64,000 nucleotides of DNA from Longimicrobiales bacterium. Its GTDB lineage: Bacteria > Gemmatimonadota > Gemmatimonadetes > Longimicrobiales > Gaopeijiaceae. Positions within the stretch are counted from its first letter, which is position 1, and every line of letters starts with the position of its first letter. The notes under the pieces were generated by a model, which worked only from the letters and a program-made list of their open reading frames with translations, made no database searches and was not told the DNA's origin. Shown in pieces: positions 4,575 through 64,000 of the stretch. A program made the translations under genes and the position numbers. The stretch spans positions 588,852 to 652,851 of the forward strand of contig OZ242201.1 in the NCBI GenBank assembly GCA_965206105.1. The letters run 5' to 3'.

Positions 4575-5920
4575 CGCTCCACGTTCGCCCCCACCAACTG
4601 CGCGATCGCGGCCAGCGTCGTCTGCGCCGCGTTCAGCCCGAGCCGGAAGTCGTCATCCGTGTACGTCGTCCACACGTCGGTGGGCTGGTGCCAGTTCGGG
4701 TTCCACCCCGCCCCCACCTGCGCACCGCGCTCGTTCTCCCGCAGGCTGATCGCCGCGACGAGGTTCATGAAGGGCGTCGAATCGGTGTTGGTCATGTGCG
4801 GGCCGACCGTGGCCGGGTAGTCCGTCGCATAGCGCGCGTTTGCGAACTTGAAGAGGAACGCCAGGTTCATCGACTCCTCGACCATCTCCGAGTTCCACTG
4901 GAATTCGATGTTGACGTCGGCCTCGGGCCGCTGGTTGCGGCTGACCCGCCCGTCCGGACCCGGCGCTCCGTGATCCCACAGCATCATGTCGTGCTGGACC
5001 ATCCCCAGCCACCTGGGCTCGGGATACCGGCCGGAGCCCGGGGGATCCTCGATGCCCTGCAGCTCCTGGCGCTGCTCCACGTAAGCCCGCGCGCCGTTCA
5101 GCCCGGTCTCCTCGTTGTTCCACAGGATGAAGCGGATCGAGCGCTCGGTCTCCACGTCCGGCGAGCTGAAGATGCGGGCCAGCTCCATGACCAGCGCCGT
5201 GCCGGAGCCGTCGTCGTCCACCGCCTCGTTGACGCCGTGGCCGTCCATGTGCGCGCCCAGGATGTACATCTCGTCGGGGCGGGTGGTGCCGACCTTGGTG
5301 CAGTAGACCTGGGAGCGGTCGCCGTCGACCGGCTCCTCGCGGTTGAGCTCGCGGATGCGCTCGTCGGGCTGCGCCATGAGGCCGCGGTTGACGCCGGTGC
5401 GGCCCCGGTAGCCGAAGATGGTGCTGCCGCCGGAGCCGCGTCCCCGGCGTCCCACGAGGCCTCCGGTCGCCGTCGTCAGGTCCTCGACCTGCTGGCGGGG
5501 TGGGGGACGGCGGGCGGCGCCCTGGGCCTGAGCCGGCGTTCGGCGCGGCGGATCGGCGAACCGCACCGGCGCATACTCGTAGTGGACGCGCTCGGTGTTC
5601 GTGCAGCCTGCGTCCTGCAGCCAGGCCTCGATCCAGTCCACCGCGTCGCGGTTGCGCTGCGTGCCCTGGCGGCGGTCGCCGAACTGCGTCAGCCCCTTCA
5701 GCGTCGCCTTGTACTCGTCGAGGGTGAGGCGCTCGACCATGACGGCGACGGGGTCGACCTCCTGCTCCTCCTGCTCCTGCAGGGCGGCAAGCGGCCGGGT
5801 GGCGGCACCCACGGCCAGAAGCGACAGAACTGTAAGGAGAACACGACATTTAGTAATGGTCTCTTTACAGTCTCGGCGAGTGCCATCGGTTTGGAGTGGT
5901 GCGGGCGGGTGGCAGGGCAT
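4571..5920 (-). CDS. M28 family metallopeptidase (aminopeptidase-like), exported
   Basis: M28 motifs are present: GAHMDGHG, DDDGSGTA, NNEETGLNGA. Signal-like RVLLTVLSLLAVGAA. The start is set at the in-frame ATG 5920. An alternative start problem is described in findings. Confidence 0.85.
   Translation of the reverse strand: MPCHPPAPLQTDGTRRDCKETITKCRVLLTVLSLLAVGAATRPLAALQEQEEQEVDPVAVMVERLTLDEYKATLKGLTQFGDRRQGTQRNRDAVDWIEAWLQDAGCTNTERVHYEYAPVRFADPPRRTPAQAQGAARRPPPRQQVEDLTTATGGLVGRRGRGSGGSTIFGYRGRTGVNRGLMAQPDERIRELNREEPVDGDRSQVYCTKVGTTRPDEMYILGAHMDGHGVNEAVDDDGSGTALVMELARIFSSPDVETERSIRFILWNNEETGLNGARAYVEQRQELQGIEDPPGSGRYPEPRWLGMVQHDMMLWDHGAPGPDGRVSRNQRPEADVNIEFQWNSEMVEESMNLAFLFKFANARYATDYPATVGPHMTNTDSTPFMNLVAAISLRENERGAQVGAGWNPNWHQPTDVWTTYTDDDFRLGLNAAQTTLAAIAQLVGANVER
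5832..5868 (-). repeat. 37-bp AT-rich bipartite element, copy A (units inverted)
   Basis: Minus strand reads GTAAAGAGACCATTAC-TAAAT-GTCGTGTTCTCCTTAC. Lies in the 5' region of the M28 gene. Confidence 0.8.
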
Positions 5921-7923: not shown

Positions 7924-9912
7924 ATGCAACGTGAACGGAGCCGCACCAACGCGCCACCTGCAGATGTCTACGCGCAAAGGGCTGACCGCTTCGATCGGGA
8001 GGCCGCCGCCCAGGAGGGCACGGTTCGGTTCTACGGGCGACTCCGCCTCGCCCTCTTCACGGCTTCCACCCTGGGCGCATGGTGGCTCTTCGCTTCGGGA
8101 CGCGGCGCACCGGCGTGGCTGCTGCTGGCCGCGGCGGCGGCGCTCTTCGTGGTGTTCGTGGCGCGGCAGCAGGCGGCCCGGCTGCGCAGGCAGCGCGCAG
8201 AGTTCATGGCCGACTTCAACCGGGAAGGGATCGCCCGCATCGCGCGTTCGTGGCCCGGACTGCGATCCGCCCCCGACCTCGCGGCTCCCAACGGCCACGA
8301 CTACGCCGACGACCTCGACCTCTACGGCCACGCCTCCCTCCTGCACCTCGTGGGCGTGTGCGGGACGCCCCCCGGCTGGCGAACGCTGCAGGAGTGGCTG
8401 CTCCGTGGCGCGGACCAGGATACCATCGCCCTGCGCCAGGAGGCGGTCCGCGAGATGGCCGGGGCGCTCGCCTTTCGGGACGGGCTCGCGGCGGAGGGGC
8501 GGCTGGCGGCCATTCCCGCGGCGACGCGTCTCGTGGCCACTCCCACCGAGTCGCGGCTCGGAGCCACACCCACCGGGACGCGGGCGCGCGACTCGCAAGC
8601 CGCGCCCGAGGACCGCTTTCTCCGCTGGGCCGAAGGCGACCCGTGGCTGCCGGGGCACCGCTGGCTCCGCGCCGCCAGCTTCGTGCTCCCGCCAATCAAC
8701 GTGGCCGCGATCACCCTCTTTTCCCTGGGCATGGCGCCACTGCCGGCGCTGGTCTGGCCGCTCCTGATCTCGGCGCTGGTGGTCGTGCCGCGATGGCGCG
8801 CGATCCACGCTGTCTTCGACGAGGCGGATGACGGCGAGTCCGGGGTGCGGCGCTACGCCCCCATTCTCGGCCATCTTCGCGATGCGCCGCTCGGGTCGCG
8901 CTACCTGGCGGCCCTGCGCGAGCGCGTCGGCGCTGCTCCGCCGGCCGTCGCCGGGCCCGCGGGCGGCACCGTCGGGCCACCTTCGGCCGCCGGGCCACAC
9001 GCCGCACCCGAGGAGATCGCCACCCTGCGCCGCCTCCTCGACATGGCCGAGGCCAGAAGGTCGCCGCTCGGCCACATCCCGCTCGCGCTGGTTTTTCACT
9101 GGGACGTGCATGTGCTGGCCGCGATGGAGCGGTGGAAGGCGCGGTCGGGCCGCCGCGTGAGGGGGTGGCTGGGGGCGGTGGGGGAAGCGGAGGCGCTGGC
9201 CGCCCTTGCTGCCCTCGCCGCCGACAATCCCGGCTGGATGATGCCTGCGCTCGATGACCACGCTCGCACGCTCCGCGCCCGCGCCCTTGGCCACCCCCTC
9301 CTGCCGCCGCAGGAGTGCGTCCACAACAATGTCGAAATCGGCCCCGCGGGCTCCTTCCTGCTCGTCACCGGCTCCAACATGTCAGGCAAGTCGACCCTGC
9401 TCCGCGCAACCGGACTGAACGCGGTCCTGGCCCAGGCCGGCGGTCCCGTCTGCGCCGAGGAACTGCGGATGCCCCCGCTCCGCGTCATGACCAGCATCCA
9501 CATCGAGGACTCGCTCGCCGACGGCGTCTCCTACTTCCTTGCCGGACTCCAGCGGCTCAAGCGCGTGGTCGACGCGACCGCCGGCCCCCGGCCCCGCACC
9601 CTCTACCTCCTCGACGAGATCCTGCAGGGCACCAACAGCGCCGAGCGCCGCATCGCGGCCCGCACGGTGCTGAGAAAACTCGTCGCCACCGACGCGATCG
9701 GCGCCGTGACCACGCACGACCTCGCTCTCGCCGACGCCGACGACCTTGCCGAACGGGCAACCGCCGTCCACTTCACCGAATCTGTTGGGGCAACGGATAG
9801 GGAGCTCAGCTTCGACTATCGGCTGCGCGACGGCATCACCACTTCGACGAATGCGCTGCGGCTGCTGGCGTTGGCCGGGCTGGGAGATGGAGATGATTCC
9901 GGGGATTCGTAG
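7924..9912 (+). CDS. MutS-related ATPase (MutS domain V) with N-terminal membrane segments
   Basis: Walker A GSNMSGKST, then DSLADGVSYF, LLDEILQGTN and TTHDL. The ATG at 7924 is followed by hydrophobic helices. Confidence 0.8.
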   Translation: MQRERSRTNAPPADVYAQRADRFDREAAAQEGTVRFYGRLRLALFTASTLGAWWLFASGRGAPAWLLLAAAAALFVVFVARQQAARLRRQRAEFMADFNREGIARIARSWPGLRSAPDLAAPNGHDYADDLDLYGHASLLHLVGVCGTPPGWRTLQEWLLRGADQDTIALRQEAVREMAGALAFRDGLAAEGRLAAIPAATRLVATPTESRLGATPTGTRARDSQAAPEDRFLRWAEGDPWLPGHRWLRAASFVLPPINVAAITLFSLGMAPLPALVWPLLISALVVVPRWRAIHAVFDEADDGESGVRRYAPILGHLRDAPLGSRYLAALRERVGAAPPAVAGPAGGTVGPPSAAGPHAAPEEIATLRRLLDMAEARRSPLGHIPLALVFHWDVHVLAAMERWKARSGRRVRGWLGAVGEAEALAALAALAADNPGWMMPALDDHARTLRARALGHPLLPPQECVHNNVEIGPAGSFLLVTGSNMSGKSTLLRATGLNAVLAQAGGPVCAEELRMPPLRVMTSIHIEDSLADGVSYFLAGLQRLKRVVDATAGPRPRTLYLLDEILQGTNSAERRIAARTVLRKLVATDAIGAVTTHDLALADADDLAERATAVHFTESVGATDRELSFDYRLRDGITTSTNALRLLALAGLGDGDDSGDS

Positions 9913-9948
9913 CGCGGTTCGCGCAGCTGTTCCTATTCCCAGGGTGCG

Positions 9949-9995
9949 TCCCGGGAATTTTCCCGATCGGGAAAAAATTTTACCGATCGGGAAAA
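9949..9995. promoter_or_regulatory. candidate operator: TCCCGGGA plus two tandem 18-bp palindromes
   Basis: 9958..9975 is TTTTCCCGATCGGGAAAA, a perfect palindrome. 9978..9995 is TTTTACCGATCGGGAAAA, with one mismatch. They are 20 bp apart, about 50 bp upstream of the GTG at 10046. Confidence 0.5.
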
Positions 9996-10045
9996 TTCTC
10001 GTAACGGTGCCCCGAACCCCACATCGACCCTGACCCCTGCAGCAG

Positions 10046-11044
10046 GTGCCCCCACCCCTCACCCTCGTCATCCTCGCGGCCGGCCGCTCGACCCGCTTCG
10101 GCCGCCTGAAGCAGCTGGCGCCCGTCGGCCCCGGCGGCGCGGCCCTGCTCGACTACGCGCTCTACGACGGCGCCCTCGCCGGCTTCACCCGGTTCGTCCT
10201 CGTGATCCAGGAGGCGCTGCGGCCCGACTTCGACGCGCACCTGCGCGCCGCAATCACAGCCGGCCTCGACATTCGCTTCGCCTACCAGCGGCTCACCCAC
10301 CCCGGCCTGGTGGACGACCCGCCCCCCGGCCGCACCCGGCCCTGGGGCACCGGCCACGCGGTCCTGACGGCTGGCGAGGAGGTCGGCGGTGGCGGCCCCT
10401 TCGCGATCTGCAACGCCGACGACTTCTACGGACGGCAAGCGTACGCGGAGCTGGCAGAGGCAATGCGGAGTCCCCAGCCCCAGAACGCCACCAAGAGTAA
10501 AGCCAACATTACAGAACGTAAAGCAAACATGTCATTCGCCATCAGCTACCCCCTCTCGGCGACCCTCTCCGACAGCGGCGGCGTCTCGCGCGGCCTTTGC
10601 GAAGTCGACGAGTCCGGCACCCTCCTGCGGCTCACCGAGGGGCTGGAGCTGCGGCGGGTGGAGGCCGCCGACCGCAACCCCGCCCGCGTCCACGGCCGCG
10701 ACATCGCCGACCGGCCCATCAACGTCCCCACCGCCACCCCCGTCTGCACCAACCTGTGGGGCTTCGCACCCGGAATCCTGCCCCCCCTTCGCGACCTCTT
10801 CACCCGGTTCCTCGCCGCCGACCCCGGCCTTGACCGCGAGTTCTACCTCTCCGAAGCGATGAACGAGCTGATCGCGACCGGTCGCGCCCACTGCACCGTG
10901 CTCCCCACCGGCGCCCTCTGGCTCGGCGTCACCTTCCCCGGCGACCACGCGGGAGTGGCCGAATCGCTGCGCAAGCTGGTAGACTCGAAGGTCTACCCTG
11001 CGCGACTCTGGGACGCTCCGCCCCTCCCCTTGCCCCCCGATTGA
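10046..11044 (+). CDS. sugar-phosphate nucleotidyltransferase family protein
   Basis: N-terminal LVILAAGRSTRFG motif, then GTGHA and CNADDFYG. Carries an in-frame AT-rich insertion (element copy B). Confidence 0.75.
   Translation: MPPPLTLVILAAGRSTRFGRLKQLAPVGPGGAALLDYALYDGALAGFTRFVLVIQEALRPDFDAHLRAAITAGLDIRFAYQRLTHPGLVDDPPPGRTRPWGTGHAVLTAGEEVGGGGPFAICNADDFYGRQAYAELAEAMRSPQPQNATKSKANITERKANMSFAISYPLSATLSDSGGVSRGLCEVDESGTLLRLTEGLELRRVEAADRNPARVHGRDIADRPINVPTATPVCTNLWGFAPGILPPLRDLFTRFLAADPGLDREFYLSEAMNELIATGRAHCTVLPTGALWLGVTFPGDHAGVAESLRKLVDSKVYPARLWDAPPLPLPPD
10497..10533 (+). repeat. 37-bp AT-rich bipartite element, copy B (direct units), inside ORF
   Basis: GTAAAGCCAACATTAC-AGAAC-GTAAAGCAAACATGTC. 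Confidence 0.8.
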
Positions 11045-11049
11045 CGCCG

Positions 11050-12825
11050 ATGCAACTCACCACACTCGACTGGATCGTCATCACCCTCTACGGCCTCACG
11101 GCCCTCGCCATCGGCCTCCGCTTCGCCCGGCGCGCGGGTTCGGGCGCCGACGAGTTCTTCCTCTCGGGTCGCAAGCTGCCCTGGTGGCTGCTGGGCACGT
11201 CGATGGTGGCCACGACCTTCTCCACGGACACGCCCAACCTGGTCGCCGACTTCGTGCGCAGCGGGGGCGTCGCGCAGAACTGGTCGTGGTGGGCCTTCCT
11301 GATCACCGGGATGCTCACGGTCTTCTTCTACGCGCGCCTGTGGCGCCGCTCGGGCGCGCTGACCGACATCGAGTTCTACGAACTGCGCTACTCCGGACGG
11401 CCGGCGGCCTTCCTTCGGGGCTTCCGCGCGCTCTACCTGGGTGTCTTCTACAACGTGGTGATCATCGCCACGGTGACGCTGGCGGCGACCAAGATCGGCG
11501 GTGTGCTGCTCGGGCTCGACCCGCTCACGACCGTGCTCATCGCCGGGTCCGTGACCATGCTCTATTCGGCCACCTCGGGGCTCTGGGGGGTCGTCGCCAC
11601 CGACCTGCTCCTCTTCGTCATCGCGATGATCGGATCCGTAGCCGCGGCGGTCTTCGCGCTCCAGCAACCCGAGGTCGGCGGGCTCGCGGGCCTCGTCTCC
11701 AACCCCGAGCTGCAGTCGGCAATGCGCTTCTTCCCCGACTTCTCCGACTGGAGCGTCGCGATGGGGATCTTCATCATCCCGATCGCGGTTCAGTGGTGGA
11801 GCGCGTGGTATCCGGGCGCCGAGCCCGGCGGCGGCGGGTACGTCGCCCAGCGCATGCTGGCCGCGAAGGACGAGCGGGAGGCGATGAAGGCGACGCTGTG
11901 GTTCAACATCGCGCACTACGGGCTGCGGCCGTGGCCGTGGATCATCGTCGCGCTCTGCTCGATGGTCATCTACCCGGAGCTCTCCGACATCCAGGCCCGC
12001 TTTCCGGAACTCGACCCCTCGCTGGTGGGCAACGACCTGGCCTATCCGGCGATGCTCGTATTCCTGCCGGCGGGTCTGCTGGGGCTGGTGGTCGCGTCGC
12101 TGGCGGCCGCCTACATGTCGACGATCAGCACGCAGCTGAACTGGGGGTCGTCGTACGTCGTCAACGACTGCTACCGGCGCTTCGTGAACCAGGGGGCCAG
12201 CGACCGGGAGCTGGTGGCGGTGGGACGCCTGTCCACGGTCGGGCTGATGGTGCTCGGCGCCTTCGTCGCGCTCCAGCTGGATACGGCCGGGCAGGGATTC
12301 CAGATCCTGCTGCAGATCGGGGCCGGGACGGGGCTCATCTTCCTGCTGCGCTGGTTCTGGTACCGGGTGAACGTGTGGAGCGAACTCTCCGGGATGACGA
12401 TCTCGTTCCTCATGGCGTTCTACTTCGCCTTCGGCCACCAGCAGCTGCTGGGGTTCGATCCGCTGCCGGCGTCGATGCAGCTGGTGATCGGAGTGGCGGT
12501 GACGACGGTGGTGTGGGTCGGCGTGACCCTCGTGACGCCGCCGGCCAGCCGCGAGACGCTGCAGGCCTTCTACGACCGGATCCAGCCGATGGGCAAGGGG
12601 TGGGGACGGGTCGTGAGGGTCGGCGACGGGCCAAAGGATGCCGGCACGATCACCGCGTCCTTCCTCGCGTGGTTCCTGGGGTGCGTCCTCGTCTACGCGG
12701 CCCTATTCGGGACCGGATACCTGCTCTACGGGCAATTCCACTGGGCAGTGCTGGCCCTCGGGGTGTCGGCGGCGGCCGGCGTGTGGCTCTTCCGGCTGCT
12801 GCCGAGGATCGGTTACGCGGGTTGA
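11050..12825 (+). CDS. sodium:solute symporter (SSS) family transporter
   Basis: Multi-pass membrane protein. FLSGRKLPWWLLGTSMVATTFSTDTP is typical of SSS N-termini. The ATG lies 5 nt after the upstream stop. Confidence 0.85.
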   Translation: MQLTTLDWIVITLYGLTALAIGLRFARRAGSGADEFFLSGRKLPWWLLGTSMVATTFSTDTPNLVADFVRSGGVAQNWSWWAFLITGMLTVFFYARLWRRSGALTDIEFYELRYSGRPAAFLRGFRALYLGVFYNVVIIATVTLAATKIGGVLLGLDPLTTVLIAGSVTMLYSATSGLWGVVATDLLLFVIAMIGSVAAAVFALQQPEVGGLAGLVSNPELQSAMRFFPDFSDWSVAMGIFIIPIAVQWWSAWYPGAEPGGGGYVAQRMLAAKDEREAMKATLWFNIAHYGLRPWPWIIVALCSMVIYPELSDIQARFPELDPSLVGNDLAYPAMLVFLPAGLLGLVVASLAAAYMSTISTQLNWGSSYVVNDCYRRFVNQGASDRELVAVGRLSTVGLMVLGAFVALQLDTAGQGFQILLQIGAGTGLIFLLRWFWYRVNVWSELSGMTISFLMAFYFAFGHQQLLGFDPLPASMQLVIGVAVTTVVWVGVTLVTPPASRETLQAFYDRIQPMGKGWGRVVRVGDGPKDAGTITASFLAWFLGCVLVYAALFGTGYLLYGQFHWAVLALGVSAAAGVWLFRLLPRIGYAG

Positions 12826-12829
12826 CGGG

Positions 12830-14257
12830 GTGACGGGGGGTAGCCGCGGCCGCTCGCATGACGCGCGGGTATCTTCCGCGGGCTCCTTTACGGCGATCGC
12901 GCCCGGGCGCGTCAACCTGATCGGGGAGCACACCGACTACAACGGGTTGCCGGTGCTGCCGATCGCGATTGACCGGGCGGTCCGTATCGGGTTTCGGGTC
13001 GTGGGCGAGCCGGTGGTGTGGTTGGACAGCGCCGGGGCGCGGTTTGCGCCCTTAACGTTTCAGCTGAAACGTCCCATCGAGCCCGCGGAGCAGGGAGACT
13101 GGTCGAACTATGTGCGGGCGGCGGCGCGGGGGCTGCTGGAGAGCGGGCTGCTCGGCGCCGATCCTCTGCCCTGCGGTATCGAAGGAACCGTGAGCGGCGA
13201 TGTGCCGATTGCCGCGGGGCTGTCGTCCTCGTCGGCGCTGGTGGTGGCGAGCGCGTTGGCGCTGCTGAGGGCGAATGGGGTGGGTGTGGGGGGGGCGGGG
13301 GGGGGCGGGGGGCGGGGCGAGGTGGCGGGGGCGGGCGCCGGGCGGGGCGAAGCGGGCGCCGGGCGCACCGAGGTGCCGCGCCTTGACCTCGCCGCGCTGA
13401 TGGCGCGGGCCGAGCGCTTCGTGGGGCTGGAAGGGGGAGGGATGGACCAGGCGGCGTGCCTGTTTGGGGAGGAGGGGCATGCGCTTAGGATCGAGTTCGA
13501 GCCGCTGCGGGTGACGAAGGTGGCCGTGCCGGAGGGGTGGCGGTGGGTGGTGGCGTCGTCGCTGGTCCGCGCGGAGAAGTCGGGGGGTGCGCGCGAGGCA
13601 TACAACGAGCGGGCGAGGCAGTGCCGGGAGGCGCTGGGAGCGGTGGTGGAGCACCTGTCGCGGAGGGGAGGCGACGGACGCCGCGGCAGAGAGCGGGACG
13701 CGGGCATGTCGCGTTGGGACGGCCCCGACGCGCGCCGCGGCAAAGCGCGGGACGAGGGCATGTCTGGTTGGGCGGTCGCCGGATCCACGACCTACTCGGG
13801 CCTGCTGGCGCGCGGTGGTCTTGGCGAGCTGATCGCGGATGCCCAGCGCGTACTCTCGCCCGTGCTGCTGCGCCGCTTCCGCCACGTCGTGACGGAGGGC
13901 CGCCGGGTCGCGCAGGCCGAGGCGGCGATGCGGGCGGGCGAAATGGGCCGCTTCGGGGAATTGATGGTCGCATCGCACGAGAGCCTCCGTAGCGACTACG
14001 AGGTGAGCACGCCCGCGCTGGACGAGATCGTGGAGATTGCGCTCGAGGCCGGAGCCGCCGGGGCCAGGCTGACCGGGGCGGGGTTCGGGGGATGCGCGGT
14101 GGCGCTGTGCGACGAGCGCACCGTCCGCGCGGTGATGGATGCCCTCGCCGCGCGGTTCTACGCGCCGCGCCTGGGCGGGCCGCCGGGGGGCGACGTGATG
14201 TTTGCCGTGAAGGCATCGGGGGGGGCGGGGGTGGGGGGGGCGGACGGGGCGTCCTGA
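12830..14257 (+). CDS. galK: galactokinase-like GHMP kinase with low-complexity insertions
   Basis: GRVNLIGEHTDYNG galactokinase signature and GLSSSSALVVA GHMP motif. A GTG start at 12830 lies just after the symporter stop. Two Gly/Arg-rich insertions. Confidence 0.8.
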   Translation: MTGGSRGRSHDARVSSAGSFTAIAPGRVNLIGEHTDYNGLPVLPIAIDRAVRIGFRVVGEPVVWLDSAGARFAPLTFQLKRPIEPAEQGDWSNYVRAAARGLLESGLLGADPLPCGIEGTVSGDVPIAAGLSSSSALVVASALALLRANGVGVGGAGGGGGRGEVAGAGAGRGEAGAGRTEVPRLDLAALMARAERFVGLEGGGMDQAACLFGEEGHALRIEFEPLRVTKVAVPEGWRWVVASSLVRAEKSGGAREAYNERARQCREALGAVVEHLSRRGGDGRRGRERDAGMSRWDGPDARRGKARDEGMSGWAVAGSTTYSGLLARGGLGELIADAQRVLSPVLLRRFRHVVTEGRRVAQAEAAMRAGEMGRFGELMVASHESLRSDYEVSTPALDEIVEIALEAGAAGARLTGAGFGGCAVALCDERTVRAVMDALAARFYAPRLGGPPGGDVMFAVKASGGAGVGGADGAS

Positions 14258-14348
14258 GGGGCCAGCTTGTGCAGTTTCGCATTGCGCTTGGCTACGACAT
14301 AGTGTCATAATCATACGACAACAGATCGTAAATGCATCGGAGGGGACA

Positions 14349-15650: not shown

Positions 15651-15693
15651 ACGAAGAGCCGGGTTGGCGAACGGCCCGCAGCCGGTTAGCCTT

Positions 15694-15723
15694 GCTAATC
15701 TATAGTCTCCACTAGAGATTAGC
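15694..15723. promoter_or_regulatory. inverted repeat immediately upstream of the ATPase gene
   Basis: GCTAATCTATAG-tctcca-CTAGAGATTAGC: 12-nt arms with 1 mismatch. It ends 4 nt before the ATG at 15728. Confidence 0.45.
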
Positions 15724-15727
15724 TCAT

Positions 15728-16894
15728 ATGATCACCAGACGCAGCAGGGAACTGATCCGGCGAGACCTCGCCTGGTTCCCCTCGGTTGTTCTGTTGGGAC
15801 CGCGCCAGGTGGGCAAGACGACTCTCGCCCGGGAGATCGAGAGCGAGGTTCGCGATTCACTCTATCTGGACCTGGAGGATCCCGGCGTCGTGGGCCGGCT
15901 ATCGAACCCGAGACGCTATCTCGACCTGCACCGCCACCGCCTGGTCATCCTCGACGAAATCCAGCGAATGTCGGATCTCTTTCGGGTCCTGCGTGGCGCC
16001 ATTGACGCACGCCGGCGGGAAGGGCGTGAGAGCGGACACTTCCTCATCCTCGGATCCGCCTCCGGGGCTTTGCTGCGCCAATCCGCCGAGTCCCTCGCGG
16101 GGCGCGTCGCCTATCATGAGCTGCCGGGTCTCGACGCGCTGGAAGTGGGCCGCGATCCGGACCGTTCCTGGCTCCGGGGCGGGTTTCCGGACAGCGTCAC
16201 CGCACCTGGCGACGAAATCAGCTTGCGCTGGCGCACCAACTTCATCCGCACCTACCTGGAGCGGGACCTTCCTCAGGCCGGGCTGAGGGCACCCGCCGAA
16301 ACGCTGCGCAGGTTCTGGACGATGCTGTCGCACTCGCAGGGAACGCCCTTCAACGCCGCGAGACTGGCGGGCAGCCTCGGGGTCTCGGTGCCGTCGGTGA
16401 AGCGGTACGCCGACACGCTGGTCGACCTGATGCTGGTGCGCAGGCTCCAGCCCTACCATGCGAATGTGGGCAAGCGGCTCATCAAATCCCCCAGGCTCTT
16501 CGTGCGCGACAGCGGGATCGTCCACGCGCTGCTCCACATCCGGTCGATCGACGACCTGCTCGGCCATCCGGTGGCCGGAGCAAGCTGGGAGGGCCATGTC
16601 GTCGAGAACCTCATTGGGGCCGCCCCGGAGGGGACGGATGCGTTCTTCTACAGGACGCGGGCCGGTGCGGAGATCGATCTGCTCCTCCTGCTGCCGGGGC
16701 AGGAGCTCTGGGCAATCGAAGTGAAGCGATCCTCGGCCCCCAGGGTCCCGCGCGGCTTCCGCATCGCGACCGCCGATGTCCAGGCGGCCCGGAGCTTCAT
16801 CGTCTATCCGGGTGAAGAGACCTACCCGTTGGGCGACGGGATCACTGCGACGCCGCTCCCCGCCCTGATGGGCCGGCTCGTCGAGACGCGGTAG
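15728..16894 (+). CDS. AAA-type ATPase with DUF4143-like C-terminal domain
   Basis: Walker A LLGPRQVGKTT and Walker B LVILDEIQ. The layout is typical of the AAA_14/DUF4143 family. Confidence 0.8.
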   Translation: MITRRSRELIRRDLAWFPSVVLLGPRQVGKTTLAREIESEVRDSLYLDLEDPGVVGRLSNPRRYLDLHRHRLVILDEIQRMSDLFRVLRGAIDARRREGRESGHFLILGSASGALLRQSAESLAGRVAYHELPGLDALEVGRDPDRSWLRGGFPDSVTAPGDEISLRWRTNFIRTYLERDLPQAGLRAPAETLRRFWTMLSHSQGTPFNAARLAGSLGVSVPSVKRYADTLVDLMLVRRLQPYHANVGKRLIKSPRLFVRDSGIVHALLHIRSIDDLLGHPVAGASWEGHVVENLIGAAPEGTDAFFYRTRAGAEIDLLLLLPGQELWAIEVKRSSAPRVPRGFRIATADVQAARSFIVYPGEETYPLGDGITATPLPALMGRLVETR

Positions 16895-21414: not shown

Positions 21415-22614
21415 ATGGACACGAATCGGCGGGATTTTCTGAAGACGACGGTTGCCGCGGGCGGGGCTGTTGCGGCGGGGGTCACTCCTGTGGGGCTCGC
21501 GGGGTTGGCCGGGGGTGGTGGCGTGGGAGGCGCGTCGACGGCGGAGGGCGCGACGCCGCAGCCCAGCGCCGAGGCACAGACCAGGGCCGCGCAGTCGCTC
21601 CGCATCCTGATCCTGGGCGGGACCGGGTTCATCGGTCCGCACCAGGTCGAGTATGCGCTGTCGCGCGGGCACGAAGTCACGCTCTTCAACCGCGGCCGCA
21701 CCAACTCGCACCTCTTCCCCGGAGTCGAGAAGCTGGTCGGCGACCGCGAGAGCGACCTCTCCGCGCTGGAGGGGCGGAGCTGGGACGCGGTGGTGGACAA
21801 TTCGGCGACCAACGCGCCGCACTGGGTGGAGGCGAGCGCGAACCTGCTCAGGGACTCGTGCGAGCGCTACATCTTCGTCTCGACGCGGTCGGTCTACGCC
21901 GACACCAGCCGGGTGCCGATGTCGATCGAGGCGCCGGTCTGGACGTACGAGAACGCCGGCGTGGAGCGCGGCGCGGATCGGCTCCCCTACGGTCTCGGCA
22001 AGGCAATCTCCGAGCAGATCGCCCGGGACGTATTCGGCGAGGACCGCACCCTGGTCTTCCGGCCCGGCCTCATCATCGGCCCGGGCGACAACACGGACCG
22101 CTTCACCTACTGGCCCGTGCGCATCCACCGCGGCGGCGAGGTCCTCTCCCCCGGCGACGGCACCGACCCGGTGCAGATCATCGACGTGCGCGATTTCGGC
22201 GACTGGCTGGTGCGCATGGCCGAGGCGGGCGAGCACGGCACCTACAACGTCGTCGGCCCGGCGACGCCCCGTCCCATGAGCGAGATGCTCTACGGCATCC
22301 GCGCCGTGACCACCGCCGAGACCTCCTTCACCTGGGTGGATGCGGACTTCCTCCGCGAGGCGGGGCTGCGCCCCTACGGGGAGATGCCGGTGTGGCGCCC
22401 CGCCCGCGACGGGTTCGAGGGCTTCGCGCGCTTCGACCTCACGCCGGAAGTCGAGAAGGGCCTCACCTTCCGCTCGCTCGCCGACACGACCGCGGCGACG
22501 CTGGAGTTCCATTTCTCGCGTCCGGAGGAGCGGCAGGCCCGGGTGTTCAACAGGCTGAGCCCCGAGCGGGAGGCCGAGGTGCTGGCGGCGTGGCATGCGT
22601 CGCGGCGGGGGTAA
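21415..22614 (+). CDS. Tat-exported NAD(P)-dependent epimerase/dehydratase (SDR) family protein
   Basis: Twin-arginine motif NRRDFLK and Rossmann ILILGGTGFIG. Confidence 0.85.
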   Translation: MDTNRRDFLKTTVAAGGAVAAGVTPVGLAGLAGGGGVGGASTAEGATPQPSAEAQTRAAQSLRILILGGTGFIGPHQVEYALSRGHEVTLFNRGRTNSHLFPGVEKLVGDRESDLSALEGRSWDAVVDNSATNAPHWVEASANLLRDSCERYIFVSTRSVYADTSRVPMSIEAPVWTYENAGVERGADRLPYGLGKAISEQIARDVFGEDRTLVFRPGLIIGPGDNTDRFTYWPVRIHRGGEVLSPGDGTDPVQIIDVRDFGDWLVRMAEAGEHGTYNVVGPATPRPMSEMLYGIRAVTTAETSFTWVDADFLREAGLRPYGEMPVWRPARDGFEGFARFDLTPEVEKGLTFRSLADTTAATLEFHFSRPEERQARVFNRLSPEREAEVLAAWHASRRG

Positions 22615-22651
22615 GTCAAGCAAACCTTACAAACTGTAAAGCGAAGTTTAC
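22615..22651 (+). repeat. 37-bp AT-rich bipartite element, copy C (direct units)
   Basis: GTCAAGCAAACCTTAC-AAACT-GTAAAGCGAAGTTTAC. Starts right after the stop at 22614 and ends 1 nt before the ATG at 22653. Confidence 0.75.
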
Positions 22652-22652
22652 C

Positions 22653-24404
22653 ATGATGGGATTCGGATCGCGATCGGGGTGGTCCAGCAGCCTCGTGGCC
22701 ACGTTCGCCGTGGCTGGCGTCGCGCTGCTCGGCGCTTGCGCCGATGACGCTGCCGGGCCAGCCGCGCCCGCCGACCTGGTGCTGCGCGGGGGGGTGGTCG
22801 CCACGGTGGACGCCGACAACACGATGGCCGAGGCGGTGGCAATCACCGACGGGTGGATCGTGGCGGTGGGCAGCGACGAGGAGGTCGCCGCGTTCATCGG
22901 CGACGGCACCGAGGTGATCGAGCTGGACGGCCGGTTCGCCATGCCCGGCTTCATCGAGGGACACGGCCACTACATGAGCCTCGGCAACTCGAAGACGATC
23001 CTCGATCTGAACGACGCCGCCAACTGGGACGAGATCGTGCAGATGGTCGCCGAGGCGGTGGCCGACGCCGAGCCCGGCGAGTGGATCCGCGGTCGCGGAT
23101 GGCACCAGGAGAAGTGGGACCGGCCGCCCGACCCGGTCGTGGAAGGCAACCCGACCCACGCGACGCTAACCGCGGTCAGCCCGGAAAACCCGGTGCTGCT
23201 GGGCCACGCGTCGGGGCACGCGGCCTTCGCCAACGCGCTGGCTTTGGAACTGGGAGGCTTCACGAGAGACTCCGAACCGCCCCCCGGCGGCGAACTGGTT
23301 CGCGACGAGAACGGCGAACTGACCGGCCTCCTGCGCGAGACGGCCCAGGGACCGGTATCCGCGGCCTTCGCCGATTCGCAGCTTGGCCGCACGGCGGAGG
23401 AGATCGATGCCCAGTTCCGGCGCGAGGTAATGCTGGCCGCCGAGGAGGCGCTCTCCAAGGGCGTGACCTCGTTTCAGGATGCGGGCGCCGGCTTCGGCAC
23501 CATCGACCGCCTCAAGGAGATGGAGGCCGAGGGCGCGCTCCCCGTCCGCCTCTACATCATGGTCCGCCGCCAGTCCAACGAGGAGATGGATGCGCGTCTG
23601 CCCGACTACTACATGCCTTCCGAGGGGGACGACTATCTCACCGTGCGGTCGATCAAGCGCCAGATCGACGGGGCGCTCGGGTCGCACGGGGCGTGGCTGC
23701 TGGAGCCGTACGAGGACATGCCCGAATCGGTCGGGCTCGTGCTCGAAACGGTCGAGGACATCACGGGGACCGCGCACGTCGCGATCAAGCACGGGTTCCA
23801 GGTCAACACGCACGCGATCGGGGACCGCGCGAACCGCGAGGTCCTGAACATCTACGAGGCCGTCTTCGATTCGGCCGGCGGCGCGGAGGACCTGCGCTGG
23901 AGGATCGAGCACGCACAGCACGTCCACCCCGACGATGTGCAGCGCTTCGCTGAACTCGGCGTCCTCGCCTCGATGCAGGGCGTGCACGCCACCTCGGACT
24001 TTCCGTGGGTGCCCCTCCGCCTGGGCGATGACCGCACCGAGAAGCGGACCTACCTGTGGCGCTCGTTCCTCGACGCCGGCGTGCTCATCAACAACGGGAC
24101 CGACGTGCCGGTCGAGGACATCGATCCGCTCGCCAGCTTCCGCGCCTCGGTCACCCGCCGGACCGCCGACGGGTCCATCTATTACCCGGAACAGAACATG
24201 ACCCGTATCGAGGCGCTCCGCAGCTACACGGTCAACAACGCCATTGCCGCCTTCGAAGAGGAGTACAAGGGCTCGCTCGAGGTCGGCAAGCTCGGCGATG
24301 TGGTGGTGATCGATCGCGACATTCTCACCGTGCCGGACGGGGAGCTGGCGGACGCGCGCGTGGACATGACCATCGTGGGAGGAGTGGTGCGGTATGCGCG
24401 GTAG
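22653..24404 (+). CDS. amidohydrolase family (Amidohydro_3-like) lipoprotein
   Basis: Lipobox LLGAC. Motifs LRGGVVATVD, MPGFIEGHGH and NTHAIGD. Confidence 0.85.
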   Translation: MMGFGSRSGWSSSLVATFAVAGVALLGACADDAAGPAAPADLVLRGGVVATVDADNTMAEAVAITDGWIVAVGSDEEVAAFIGDGTEVIELDGRFAMPGFIEGHGHYMSLGNSKTILDLNDAANWDEIVQMVAEAVADAEPGEWIRGRGWHQEKWDRPPDPVVEGNPTHATLTAVSPENPVLLGHASGHAAFANALALELGGFTRDSEPPPGGELVRDENGELTGLLRETAQGPVSAAFADSQLGRTAEEIDAQFRREVMLAAEEALSKGVTSFQDAGAGFGTIDRLKEMEAEGALPVRLYIMVRRQSNEEMDARLPDYYMPSEGDDYLTVRSIKRQIDGALGSHGAWLLEPYEDMPESVGLVLETVEDITGTAHVAIKHGFQVNTHAIGDRANREVLNIYEAVFDSAGGAEDLRWRIEHAQHVHPDDVQRFAELGVLASMQGVHATSDFPWVPLRLGDDRTEKRTYLWRSFLDAGVLINNGTDVPVEDIDPLASFRASVTRRTADGSIYYPEQNMTRIEALRSYTVNNAIAAFEEEYKGSLEVGKLGDVVVIDRDILTVPDGELADARVDMTIVGGVVRYAR

Positions 24405-43450: not shown

Positions 43451-43551
43451 CGACCCGGGGCGCGCCCGTGGTGCGGGCGATTCGCGCGAATGCCGCATTG
43501 GGCACAACGGCTCATTCCTGCGGTGCGGATTGGGAAGGCGCACCAAAAAGC

Positions 43552-43588
43552 GTAAAGCAAACATTACCATATGTCGTGTTTACTTTAC
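43552..43588. repeat. 37-bp AT-rich bipartite element, copy D (units inverted)
   Basis: GTAAAGCAAACATTAC-CATAT-GTCGTGTTTACTTTAC, upstream of giant gene 4. Confidence 0.8.
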
Positions 43589-43724
43589 AAACCAGTCCAG
43601 CCCTTGACATCGGCAAACGCTGTTAGCTCGTCGTCTTGTGTCGTAGTATCTTGATTGGTCGAGAATGTATAGAAATGTATCGACCCGAAAACTGAGGCCA
43701 GCCTACCGCCAGCAGGCAGGACCC

Positions 43725-63671: not shown

Positions 63672-63685
63672 GCCCACCAGGGAAC

Positions 63686-63722
63686 GTAAAGACAACGTTA
63701 CATTTCGTAAAGCAAACATGAC
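63686..63722 (+). repeat. 37-bp AT-rich bipartite element, copy E (direct units)
   Basis: GTAAAGACAACGTTAC-ATTTC-GTAAAGCAAACATGAC. The ATG inside unit 2 opens the DinB-like ORF. Confidence 0.8.
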
Positions 63723-64000
63723 ATCGCACCGGACCCGCACCCGAATCGCCCACACCATCGAGATCTTCGACGCCGCGCGCAAGCCGCTCTTCCTGGTCCT
63801 CAACGGGATCGCGCAGGCCGACCTCGACTGGAACCCCGCGCCGGGGACGCGCGGGATCGGCAAGATCTGCCGCCACATGTACCGGGTGGACATCTGGTTC
63901 CTGAAGCGGCTGGGGATCGAGCCCGTGATCACCCACGACGCGCCGGGCACGGCGGACGAGATCGCGGGCCGGATGCGCACCATCCAGGAGCAGATCATCG
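63718..64000 (+). CDS. DinB-family protein, 3' end outside window
   Basis: Not in the ORF track because it has no stop in the window. My translation is MTSHRTRTRIAHTIEIFDAARKPLFLVLNGIAQADLDWNPAPGTRGIGKICRHMYRVDIWF..., which is DinB_2-like (DLDW.P.PG...IG.I..H). Confidence 0.65.
   Translation, partial: MTSHRTRTRIAHTIEIFDAARKPLFLVLNGIAQADLDWNPAPGTRGIGKICRHMYRVDIWFLKRLGIEPVITHDAPGTADEIAGRMRTIQEQII

Follow-up and report, generated by a model that had tools for sequence, protein, structure and literature searches.

An operator-like double palindrome kept in frame within a nucleotidyltransferase gene of Longimicrobiales bacteria

The DNA considered here, hereafter the window, is a stretch of 64,000 nucleotides of contig OZ242201.1 (assembly GCA_965206105.1) from a bacterium of the Longimicrobiales (Gemmatimonadota). 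On its plus strand, a gene for an RmlA-type sugar-1-phosphate nucleotidylyltransferase of 332 aa (10046–11044; assigned by Pfam, AlphaFold2, Foldseek and ortholog alignment) is followed, 5 nt past its stop, by a sodium:solute symporter gene (11050–12825, plus strand, Pfam SSF) and then by a gene for a GHMP/galactokinase-like kinase (12638–14257, plus strand; Pfam GalKase_gal_bdg, GHMP_kinases_N and GHMP_kinases_C), the true start of which is probably near 12800. Within the nucleotidyltransferase gene lies an AT-rich element of 39 bp (10496–10534), here called copy B, which consists of two 18-bp boxes with starts 21 bp apart. Box 1 (AGTAAAGCCAACATTACA, 10496–10513) is an imperfect palindrome that scores 29.8 bits with the position weight matrix (PWM) described below, box 2 (CGTAAAGCAAACATGTCA, 10517–10534) scores 20.7 bits, and the 3-bp spacer between them (GAA, 10514–10516) is variable among orthologs.

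The open reading frame (ORF) of the nucleotidyltransferase passes through copy B without a stop as ...NATKSKANITERKANMSFAISYPL..., and the element itself encodes SKANITERKANMS (S-K-A-N-I-T-E-R-K-A-N-M-S), with S-K-A-N-I-T read from box 1 and R-K-A-N-M-S from box 2, the latter box holding an in-frame ATG at 10529–10531. Half of the Lys residues of the whole enzyme (three of six) fall within residues 150–160, and the GC content at copy B is ~0.48–0.50 against a background of ~0.70. A preliminary description, made from the letters of the window, had reported a Lys-rich insert in a Lys-poor protein, translated without interruption and carrying an in-frame ATG at 10529, and in all of this it was correct; the sequence is as it described, but the coordinates it gave (10497–10533) are one base short at either end.

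Pfam NTP_transf_3/NTP_transferase covers aa 8–144 of the host protein, and copy B encodes residues 151–163, in a hypervariable loop. In an AlphaFold2 model built on a 33-sequence alignment (predicted template modelling score, pTM, 0.80), residues 145–159 have a predicted local distance difference test score (pLDDT) below 50 and form a loop between the helix at 130–141 and the strand at 162–169, so that the insert is predicted to lie in a surface loop, where the preliminary description had proposed to look for it. With the full chain, Foldseek retrieves PDB entry 3pnn (35% identity, TM 0.76/0.83) and also RmlA thymidylyltransferases. These full-length matches bear out the earlier view that the insert interrupts one continuous nucleotidyltransferase fold, and on the same ground of a single fold in AlphaFold2 and Foldseek we rejected a split or fused gene.

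Copy B belongs to a family of such elements. A PWM made from 48 boxes has as its palindromic consensus TGTAATGTC joined at the axis to GACATTACA, in which position 6 is A or T and position 4 is sometimes C; in degenerate form the two halves read TGTAAWGyn and nrCWTTACA, with the half-site TGTAAWG. When the window was scanned, 12 boxes of at least 12 bits were found, as against 0.32 in shuffles (shuffle maximum 2), and 10 of these 12 make up five pairs with starts exactly 21 bp apart, at 5831, 10496, 22614, 43551 and 63685. Over 740 kb, comprising the window and the related loci introduced below, the scan gives 74 boxes of at least 11 bits, 68 of which are 20–22 bp from a partner, and among the pairs listed the spacing is exactly 21 bp in every one. 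The repeat unit is 18 + 3 + 18 bp, containing four half-sites each about one helical turn apart, and since the box centres are 21 bp apart the half-sites would lie on the same face of the DNA.

To the window we compared 80 related loci of ~9 kb each (L001–L080), which, like the best homologues, come from metagenome-assembled genomes of Longimicrobiales-type Gemmatimonadota, many of them from sponges. The linker between the NADDFYG and GGVSRG blocks of the enzyme varies greatly among these 80 orthologous loci, the block spanning 47–107 aa, and without the element it is unalignable and 70–80% GC. It is often of Pro/Ala/Thr-rich low complexity (for example, L050:4358–4678 and L039:4349–4621) in orthologs that are otherwise 50–90% identical. 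In 21 of the 80 loci the element is present in this linker, always in one frame, which is the answer to the ortholog alignment called for in the preliminary description: the insert is lineage-specific. Together with the window copy the carriers amount to 22 sequences, 21 of them distinct, and the ORF is intact in all 22.

Among the 21 distinct elements, the bases of the arms are invariant or nearly so, including those at third codon positions 3, 12, 18 and 24, and the mean information content is 1.60 bits in the arms versus 0.85 bits elsewhere. The residues encoded at the spacer, on the other hand, vary radically, position 7 being occupied by any of nine residues and position 8 by any of five (ER, LC, FG, IC, NC, YC and others). 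Codon choice within the element is equally distinctive: the Thr codon is ACA in all 21 distinct elements, as compared with 4.3% of Thr codons elsewhere in these genes, and the rare codons ATT (8% elsewhere) and AGT (2.8% elsewhere) are likewise fixed, in genes whose GC content at third codon positions outside the element is 0.85. The site is thus conserved beyond the requirement of the protein and inside an intact ORF, as is expected of an intragenic operator. The preliminary description had named, as the pattern pointing away from maintenance at the DNA level, a peptide kept in orthologs but encoded by unrelated DNA; what the orthologs have is the reverse, a common DNA motif with a varying peptide. 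As judged from these alignments, the DNA is conserved by purifying selection and the encoded peptide is not. A function of the peptide, or of an N-X-S/T sequon within it, was also considered and rejected, given that Asp takes the place of Asn in some of the elements and that the residues vary.

A neighbour-joining tree of the enzyme shows carriers in the clade of the window (L001–L006) and, here and there, in a second clade. Two frames are open, and every carrier uses the same one, which favours a single origin with repeated loss, as far as can be told from the sequences; repeated gain is a possible alternative. Relatives also have extra copies in the same gene cluster, directly before the ATG of a beta-propeller lipoprotein gene in L002 and L044, and directly upstream of the kinase gene in L002–L004. 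At one gene cluster, then, the element stands upstream of the beta-propeller gene, inside the nucleotidyltransferase gene or upstream of the kinase gene, depending on the species, and such shifting positions are typical of binding-site turnover in a regulon.

Four sister copies are present in the window, three of them at or adjoining gene starts. The copy at 22614–22652 occupies all of the intergenic space from the stop codon of an epimerase gene (22612–22614), on the last base of which it begins, to ATG 22653 of an amidohydrolase lipoprotein gene, before which no Shine-Dalgarno sequence was found (22612–22655). At 63685–63723, box 2 contains ATG 63718, the start of a DinB_2-like gene; this box (63706–63723) differs from box 2 of copy B by one base, and the ortholog of the DinB_2-like gene on metagenome contig L135 has an identical arrangement of box 2 and ATG. 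The copy at 43551–43589 is intergenic, 75 nt upstream of ATG 43665 of a gene for a 2007-aa GH16/Calx-beta protein. The remaining copy (5831–5869) resembles copy B in being within a coding sequence, the 5' part of a minus-strand M28 peptidase ORF, in the same reading frame as copy B; it lies between ATG 5920, which has the Shine-Dalgarno sequence GGAGG, and the signal peptide (...DCKETITKCRVLLTVLSLLAVG...). This copy has an in-frame ATT in the place where other copies have ATG, a place that would make a tidy start for the signal peptide.

With four or five elements per 64 kb in the window and about one per 75 kb in the related loci, extrapolation gives tens to more than 100 elements per Longimicrobiales genome, and many genes of this group seem to have acquired the motif. 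The element does not have the character of a repetitive extragenic palindromic (REP) sequence or a mobile repeat like a miniature inverted-repeat transposable element (MITE), a possibility that we rejected: the copies are not near-identical but differ at all non-motif positions, there are no compensated changes, and no flanking target-site duplications were seen at the copies at 5831, 22614, 43551 and 63685.

The double box is not confined to the Gemmatimonadota. A scan of public metagenome contigs with a degenerate double-box pattern returned 62 stretches, of which ~20 are coding tandem repeats; the ~40 non-repeat loci, with GC contents of 0.22–0.71 and from many phyla, show TGTAAAG-N4-CTTTACA-N3-TGTAAAG-N4-CTTTACA. 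In 15 of the latter, a protein of 64–83 aa of the XRE/HTH_3 type is encoded within ~0.6 kb downstream, and the gene of a small membrane protein (DUF2178 or unassigned) usually lies between the double box and the XRE gene (L085–L088, L092, L098, L100, L103, L107, L116, L120, L126–L128 and L137). Arrays of three or more boxes with a 21-bp period were noted in L088/L119, L094/L096 and L110. The XRE proteins match the PDB structure of CylR2, the cytolysin repressor of Enterococcus faecalis, with E values of 1e-14 to 1e-16, and the structure 9k3w, of the 'PbsX family', with 1e-24. The gene of CylR2 is itself placed after that of a small membrane protein, cylR1, and CylR2 binds the cytolysin promoter (PMC3709268). 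In the cyl promoter on an E. faecalis plasmid (L143) we find the inverted repeat TTGTCAAGTG-T-CACTTGACAA with the half-site TGTCAAG, so that a half-site of the TGT(A/C)AAG type in an inverted repeat is common to both systems, with a span of 18 bp here and 19 bp there. The presence of XRE genes behind double boxes, along with their CylR2 matches, is a strong association, which suggests that the double box is the operator of a widespread family of CylR2-like regulators. Searches of the literature on the motif, on DUF2178 with XRE, on CylR2-like families and on Gemmatimonadota promoters yielded no description of the element.

Some double boxes in the metagenome set stand in other surroundings. 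On two contigs with a GC content of 0.58 (L089:106–142 and L110:4788–4824) the double box is ~125 nt from the start of a gene resembling that of ribosomal protein L35 (MPKLKTHSGAAKRFKKT...), with no adjoining XRE gene. On the GC-rich contig L132 (995–1033), a box pair lies between convergent genes, 8 nt past one stop codon, a position with no obvious promoter or start-codon role.

When the 15 XRE loci are oriented on the regulator gene, their boxes are seen to be interwoven with promoter elements. In a first set of loci, TTGACA stands 3 nt before box 1, and the -10 hexamer (TACACT, TACAAT or TACATT) is made up of the last four bases of box 1 and the spacer. A second set has its -35 in the right arm of box 2, CTTGACA, with the -10 17–18 nt further on and a further box after it. 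On low-GC, Bacteroidetes-like contigs, the arm of box 1 together with the spacer spells TACATTTG, which is the -7 element of that phylum. As the boxes overlap the -35, the -10 and the transcript start, and the ATG follows 1–4 nt past box 2, the canonical module reads as promoter, operator and very short leader in one, to which RNA polymerase would have no access once two dimers had bound. Relative to their start codons, the copies at 22614, 63685 and L002:2765 have the canonical geometry, and they are plausibly modules of the same kind. The layout of copy B matches that of the copy at 63685 and would place a transcript start at ~10521–10523, with the in-frame ATG 7 nt later, so that in our analysis an internal promoter is plausible. 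By eye, the best promoter candidates are ATTACA-N17-GTCATT, or TACAGA (10510–10515, formed by the last four bases of box 1 and the spacer) without a -35; a standard promoter elsewhere in the genome reads TTCAAC-N16-TACAAT (54385).

Two other promoter interpretations of the element were discarded. The housekeeping promoter of the phylum was rejected because ordinary TTGACA/TAnAAT promoters and GGAGG ribosome sites occur elsewhere in the window, and because the transcript start, were the right arm of box 2 the -10, would fall past the start codons at 22653 and 63718. A Bacteroidetes-type -33/-7 promoter was rejected on either strand, as the GC-rich copies have no TTTG/TAnnTTTG, which is found in low-GC contigs only.

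We consider it reasonably probable, although well short of certain, that regulator binding is the selected function of copy B, with a roadblock or a weak repressible internal promoter acting on the symporter and kinase genes. Of the suggestions in the preliminary description, a regulatory site is the one that best fits conservation at the DNA level with a varying peptide. The site lies in frame within a predicted disordered surface loop, only that loop tolerates the Lys/Asn/Ile/Thr peptide, and selection on the DNA holds the site there. Copy B would be bound by two dimers of a small helix-turn-helix regulator, most likely a CylR2-like repressor of the XRE family, which we propose because in other phyla the gene of such a protein closely follows this double box. 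The bound regulator would affect transcription through the operon, either by standing in the path of elongating RNA polymerase (roadblock) or by occluding a weak internal promoter that the boxes themselves make up. In both cases the 3' half of the operon, that is, the sugar kinase gene and the symporter gene, the latter a candidate target, would come under a regulatory control of its own, while the translated peptide would be a passenger.

Several observations weigh against such a role for copy B. On the enzyme tree the element has a patchy distribution, and close sisters may differ, as do L032 (with) and L040 (without), which implies that it is dispensable. The order nucleotidyltransferase–symporter–kinase is the same whether or not the element is present, making it an add-on and not a structural necessity. 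No CylR2-like gene came up when all ORFs of the window and of the 80 related loci were searched with a profile, and thus a binder in this lineage is only inferred; homologue searches with two GC-rich XRE proteins gave Elusimicrobia and Xanthomonadales, and no Gemmatimonadota. The CylR2 operator differs in span from the boxes by one base pair, 19 as against 18. Finally, copy B is without a -35, and its -10-like hexamer TACAGA is without the final T.

Copy B could instead be a cassette of promoter, leader and start codon, from which a transcript would begin at ~10521–10523 and translation at ATG 10529, giving a separate C-terminal half of the nucleotidyltransferase, and the symporter and kinase via translational coupling at 11044/11050. 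This explanation overlaps with regulator binding, as a regulator may still bind, and differs from it in taking the ATG and the promoter as the selected features. It draws on the canonical loci, which use the right arm of box 1 plus the spacer as the -10 (TACAnT or TACATTTG) and have the ATG 1–4 nt past box 2, on the real start codon held in the near-identical box 2 of the 63685–63723 copy, on the 22614–22652 copy, which leaves no room for another promoter, and on the good -10 hexamers of orthologs at the matching place (TACAAT in L006 and L019; TACATT in L007, L009, L010 and L031). However, the ATG of box 2 is found in only 10 of the 21 distinct ortholog elements, the rest having ATT, TTT or ACT, so that the alternative start proposed in the preliminary description does not hold as a general feature. 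In the window itself the hexamer is TACAGA with no -35, a consensus scan for sigma-70 promoters in 9900–11100 found none, and, going by the predicted structure, one half of an RmlA fold that forms a single domain would probably not function by itself. We therefore regard the cassette as unlikely, if still a serious contender.

Two further explanations were considered. The double box may have landed or arisen in a permissive loop, where it would be a tolerated and functionless relic; such a loop is at hand in a linker hypervariable in length and sequence, and the loss of the element in close sisters and the unchanged operon structure are what a relic would lead one to expect. Yet a neutral 39-mer would have decayed while the rest of the linker became unalignable, whereas the arm bases, four third codon positions among them, are invariant in 21 distinct sequences, the rare codons are fixed, and the differences between copies fall on degenerate positions of the motif, all of which makes a relic improbable. 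The other explanation places the function in the RNA or the protein, as two AU-rich mRNA hairpins, a ribosome-pausing cluster of rare codons or a functional Lys/Asn peptide. Each box is indeed palindromic, with perfect palindromes in some orthologs (in L019 the predicted fold has -11 kcal/mol, z = -2.7), and the run of rare codons lies at a sub-domain boundary. The variable arm positions (1/18, 4/15, 6/13, 8/11 and 9/10), however, pair no more often than under independence, and the RNA of copy B folds at -1.1 kcal/mol, more weakly than most of its shuffles (z = +0.85); no Rfam match at the gathering threshold was found in the whole window. The lack of covariation between the arms and of a stable fold in copy B led us to reject RNA hairpins and points to base-specific recognition by a protein. 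Moreover, the motif is also found outside coding sequences and, in other phyla, next to the gene of a DNA-binding protein, and the peptide is not conserved in a loop predicted to be disordered, so that a role at the RNA or protein level is very improbable indeed.

A broader scenario can also be drawn, in which what is elsewhere a local, self-regulating circuit of membrane sensor and CylR2-like repressor has turned into a genome-wide regulon in the largely sponge-associated Longimicrobiales. It would comprise ~100 cassettes of promoter, operator and short leader, some of them in frame in disordered loops or N-terminal extensions, with copy B as an internal promoter that responds to a signal and frees the symporter and the kinase, and a C-terminal fragment of the enzyme, from the nucleotidyltransferase promoter. 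We offer this as speculation, and in its entirety it is rather unlikely.

Other palindromic and AT-rich features were noted in the window. Upstream of the nucleotidyltransferase gene, at 9958–9995, are two more palindromes of 18 bp, TTTTCCCGATCGGGAAAA and TTTTACCGATCGGGAAAA, whose centres are separated by 20 bp and which resemble a second double operator with a different half-site; the pair is common only to the closest relative, L001 (3914–3951), and is absent from the other 79 loci. The gap between the kinase gene and the beta-propeller (DUF5128) gene contains an AT-rich island (14286–14343; ...TGTCATAATCATACGACA...CGTAAATG...) followed by a GGAGGGG ribosome site, and this island resembles a decayed copy of the element, which is intact upstream of the orthologous beta-propeller gene in L002 and L044. 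An unrelated inverted repeat, TTAGCCTTGCTAATCTATAG...CTAGAGATTAGC (15685–15744), lies directly before ATG 15728 of an AAA_14/DUF4143 ATPase gene. Between 25244 and 49688 there is a run of four very large genes of ~1,500–2,400 aa each, with Calx-beta, cadherin, fibronectin type III, SWM-repeat and GH16 domains, whose products are probably adhesin-like proteins, either secreted or on the cell surface; ahead of these genes are AT-rich regions that contain other palindromes, such as GTACACAATATTGTAC at ~31160.

Copy B offers a clean natural case of one stretch of DNA under two readings, in which the site of a regulator is kept while the encoded peptide drifts, and in which the site is located where the protein can absorb it. 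A small membrane protein together with a CylR2-like XRE protein is a very widespread yet barely studied combination, and for this the comparison yields a candidate operator consensus, paired TGTAAWG-N4-CWTTACA sites with a spacing of 21 bp. The comparison is also a pointer to a regulon of an uncultured, sponge-associated lineage, which genome sequences would allow one to map. For annotation there is a note of caution, in that AT-rich islands in GC-rich genes can be regulatory sites and are not necessarily errors or insertions.

Among known systems, the closest in its components is CylR2/CylR1 of the E. faecalis cytolysin operon. The regulators behind the double box in other phyla are homologues of CylR2, the gene of a small membrane protein usually precedes the regulator gene as cylR1 precedes cylR2, and the cyl half-site TGTCAAG, in a site that overlaps the promoter, is close to TGTAAWG. 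The cyl site, however, is a single palindrome of 19/21 bp, unlike the two 18-bp palindromes 21 bp apart described here, and CylR2 controls one locus, whereas the present element has several copies per 64 kb, with copy B inside a coding sequence.

Other systems are alike in geometry or in sequence. ARG boxes, the sites of ArgR, also consist of two 18-bp palindromes with 3 bp between them, and so have the same 18 + 3 + 18 bp geometry, but their sequence is TGAAT-N4-ATTCA. The TyrR box, TGTAAA-N6-TTTACA, has nearly the same consensus and span as one box of the element; TyrR is an NtrC-type protein of Gammaproteobacteria, while the loci that bear the present motif encode XRE proteins, and we take the likeness to both TyrR and ARG boxes as resemblance, not membership. 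With REP sequences, bacterial interspersed mosaic elements and MITE-like repeats, the element shares short and often paired palindromes between co-directional and occasionally convergent genes, as in L132, but its copies have only the motif positions in common, and orthologous copies are conserved across species.

Intragenic operators are textbook knowledge, with lac O2 in lacZ, gal OI in galE, the PurR operator in purB and the CcpA cre sites in Bacillus ORFs as examples, so the principle is not new, and the preliminary description overstated the case in calling an operator inside a coding sequence unusual. As in those systems, copy B would place a transcription-factor site in frame in a coding sequence, where it constrains the choice of codons. 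The known intragenic operators act by roadblock or looping on the transcription of their own operon, and they are single sites of 14–21 bp in well-conserved regions of the protein. Copy B, in contrast, is a 39-bp double operator in a disordered, hypervariable loop, a lineage-specific insert without a nearby partner for looping, the nearest copies being 4.6 kb and 12 kb away. What is new, as compared with all of these systems, is a double operator kept in frame as a loop of an enzyme across about twenty species, the apparent spread of its motif to many Longimicrobiales genes, and a motif linked across phyla to the pair of a CylR2-like regulator and a membrane protein.

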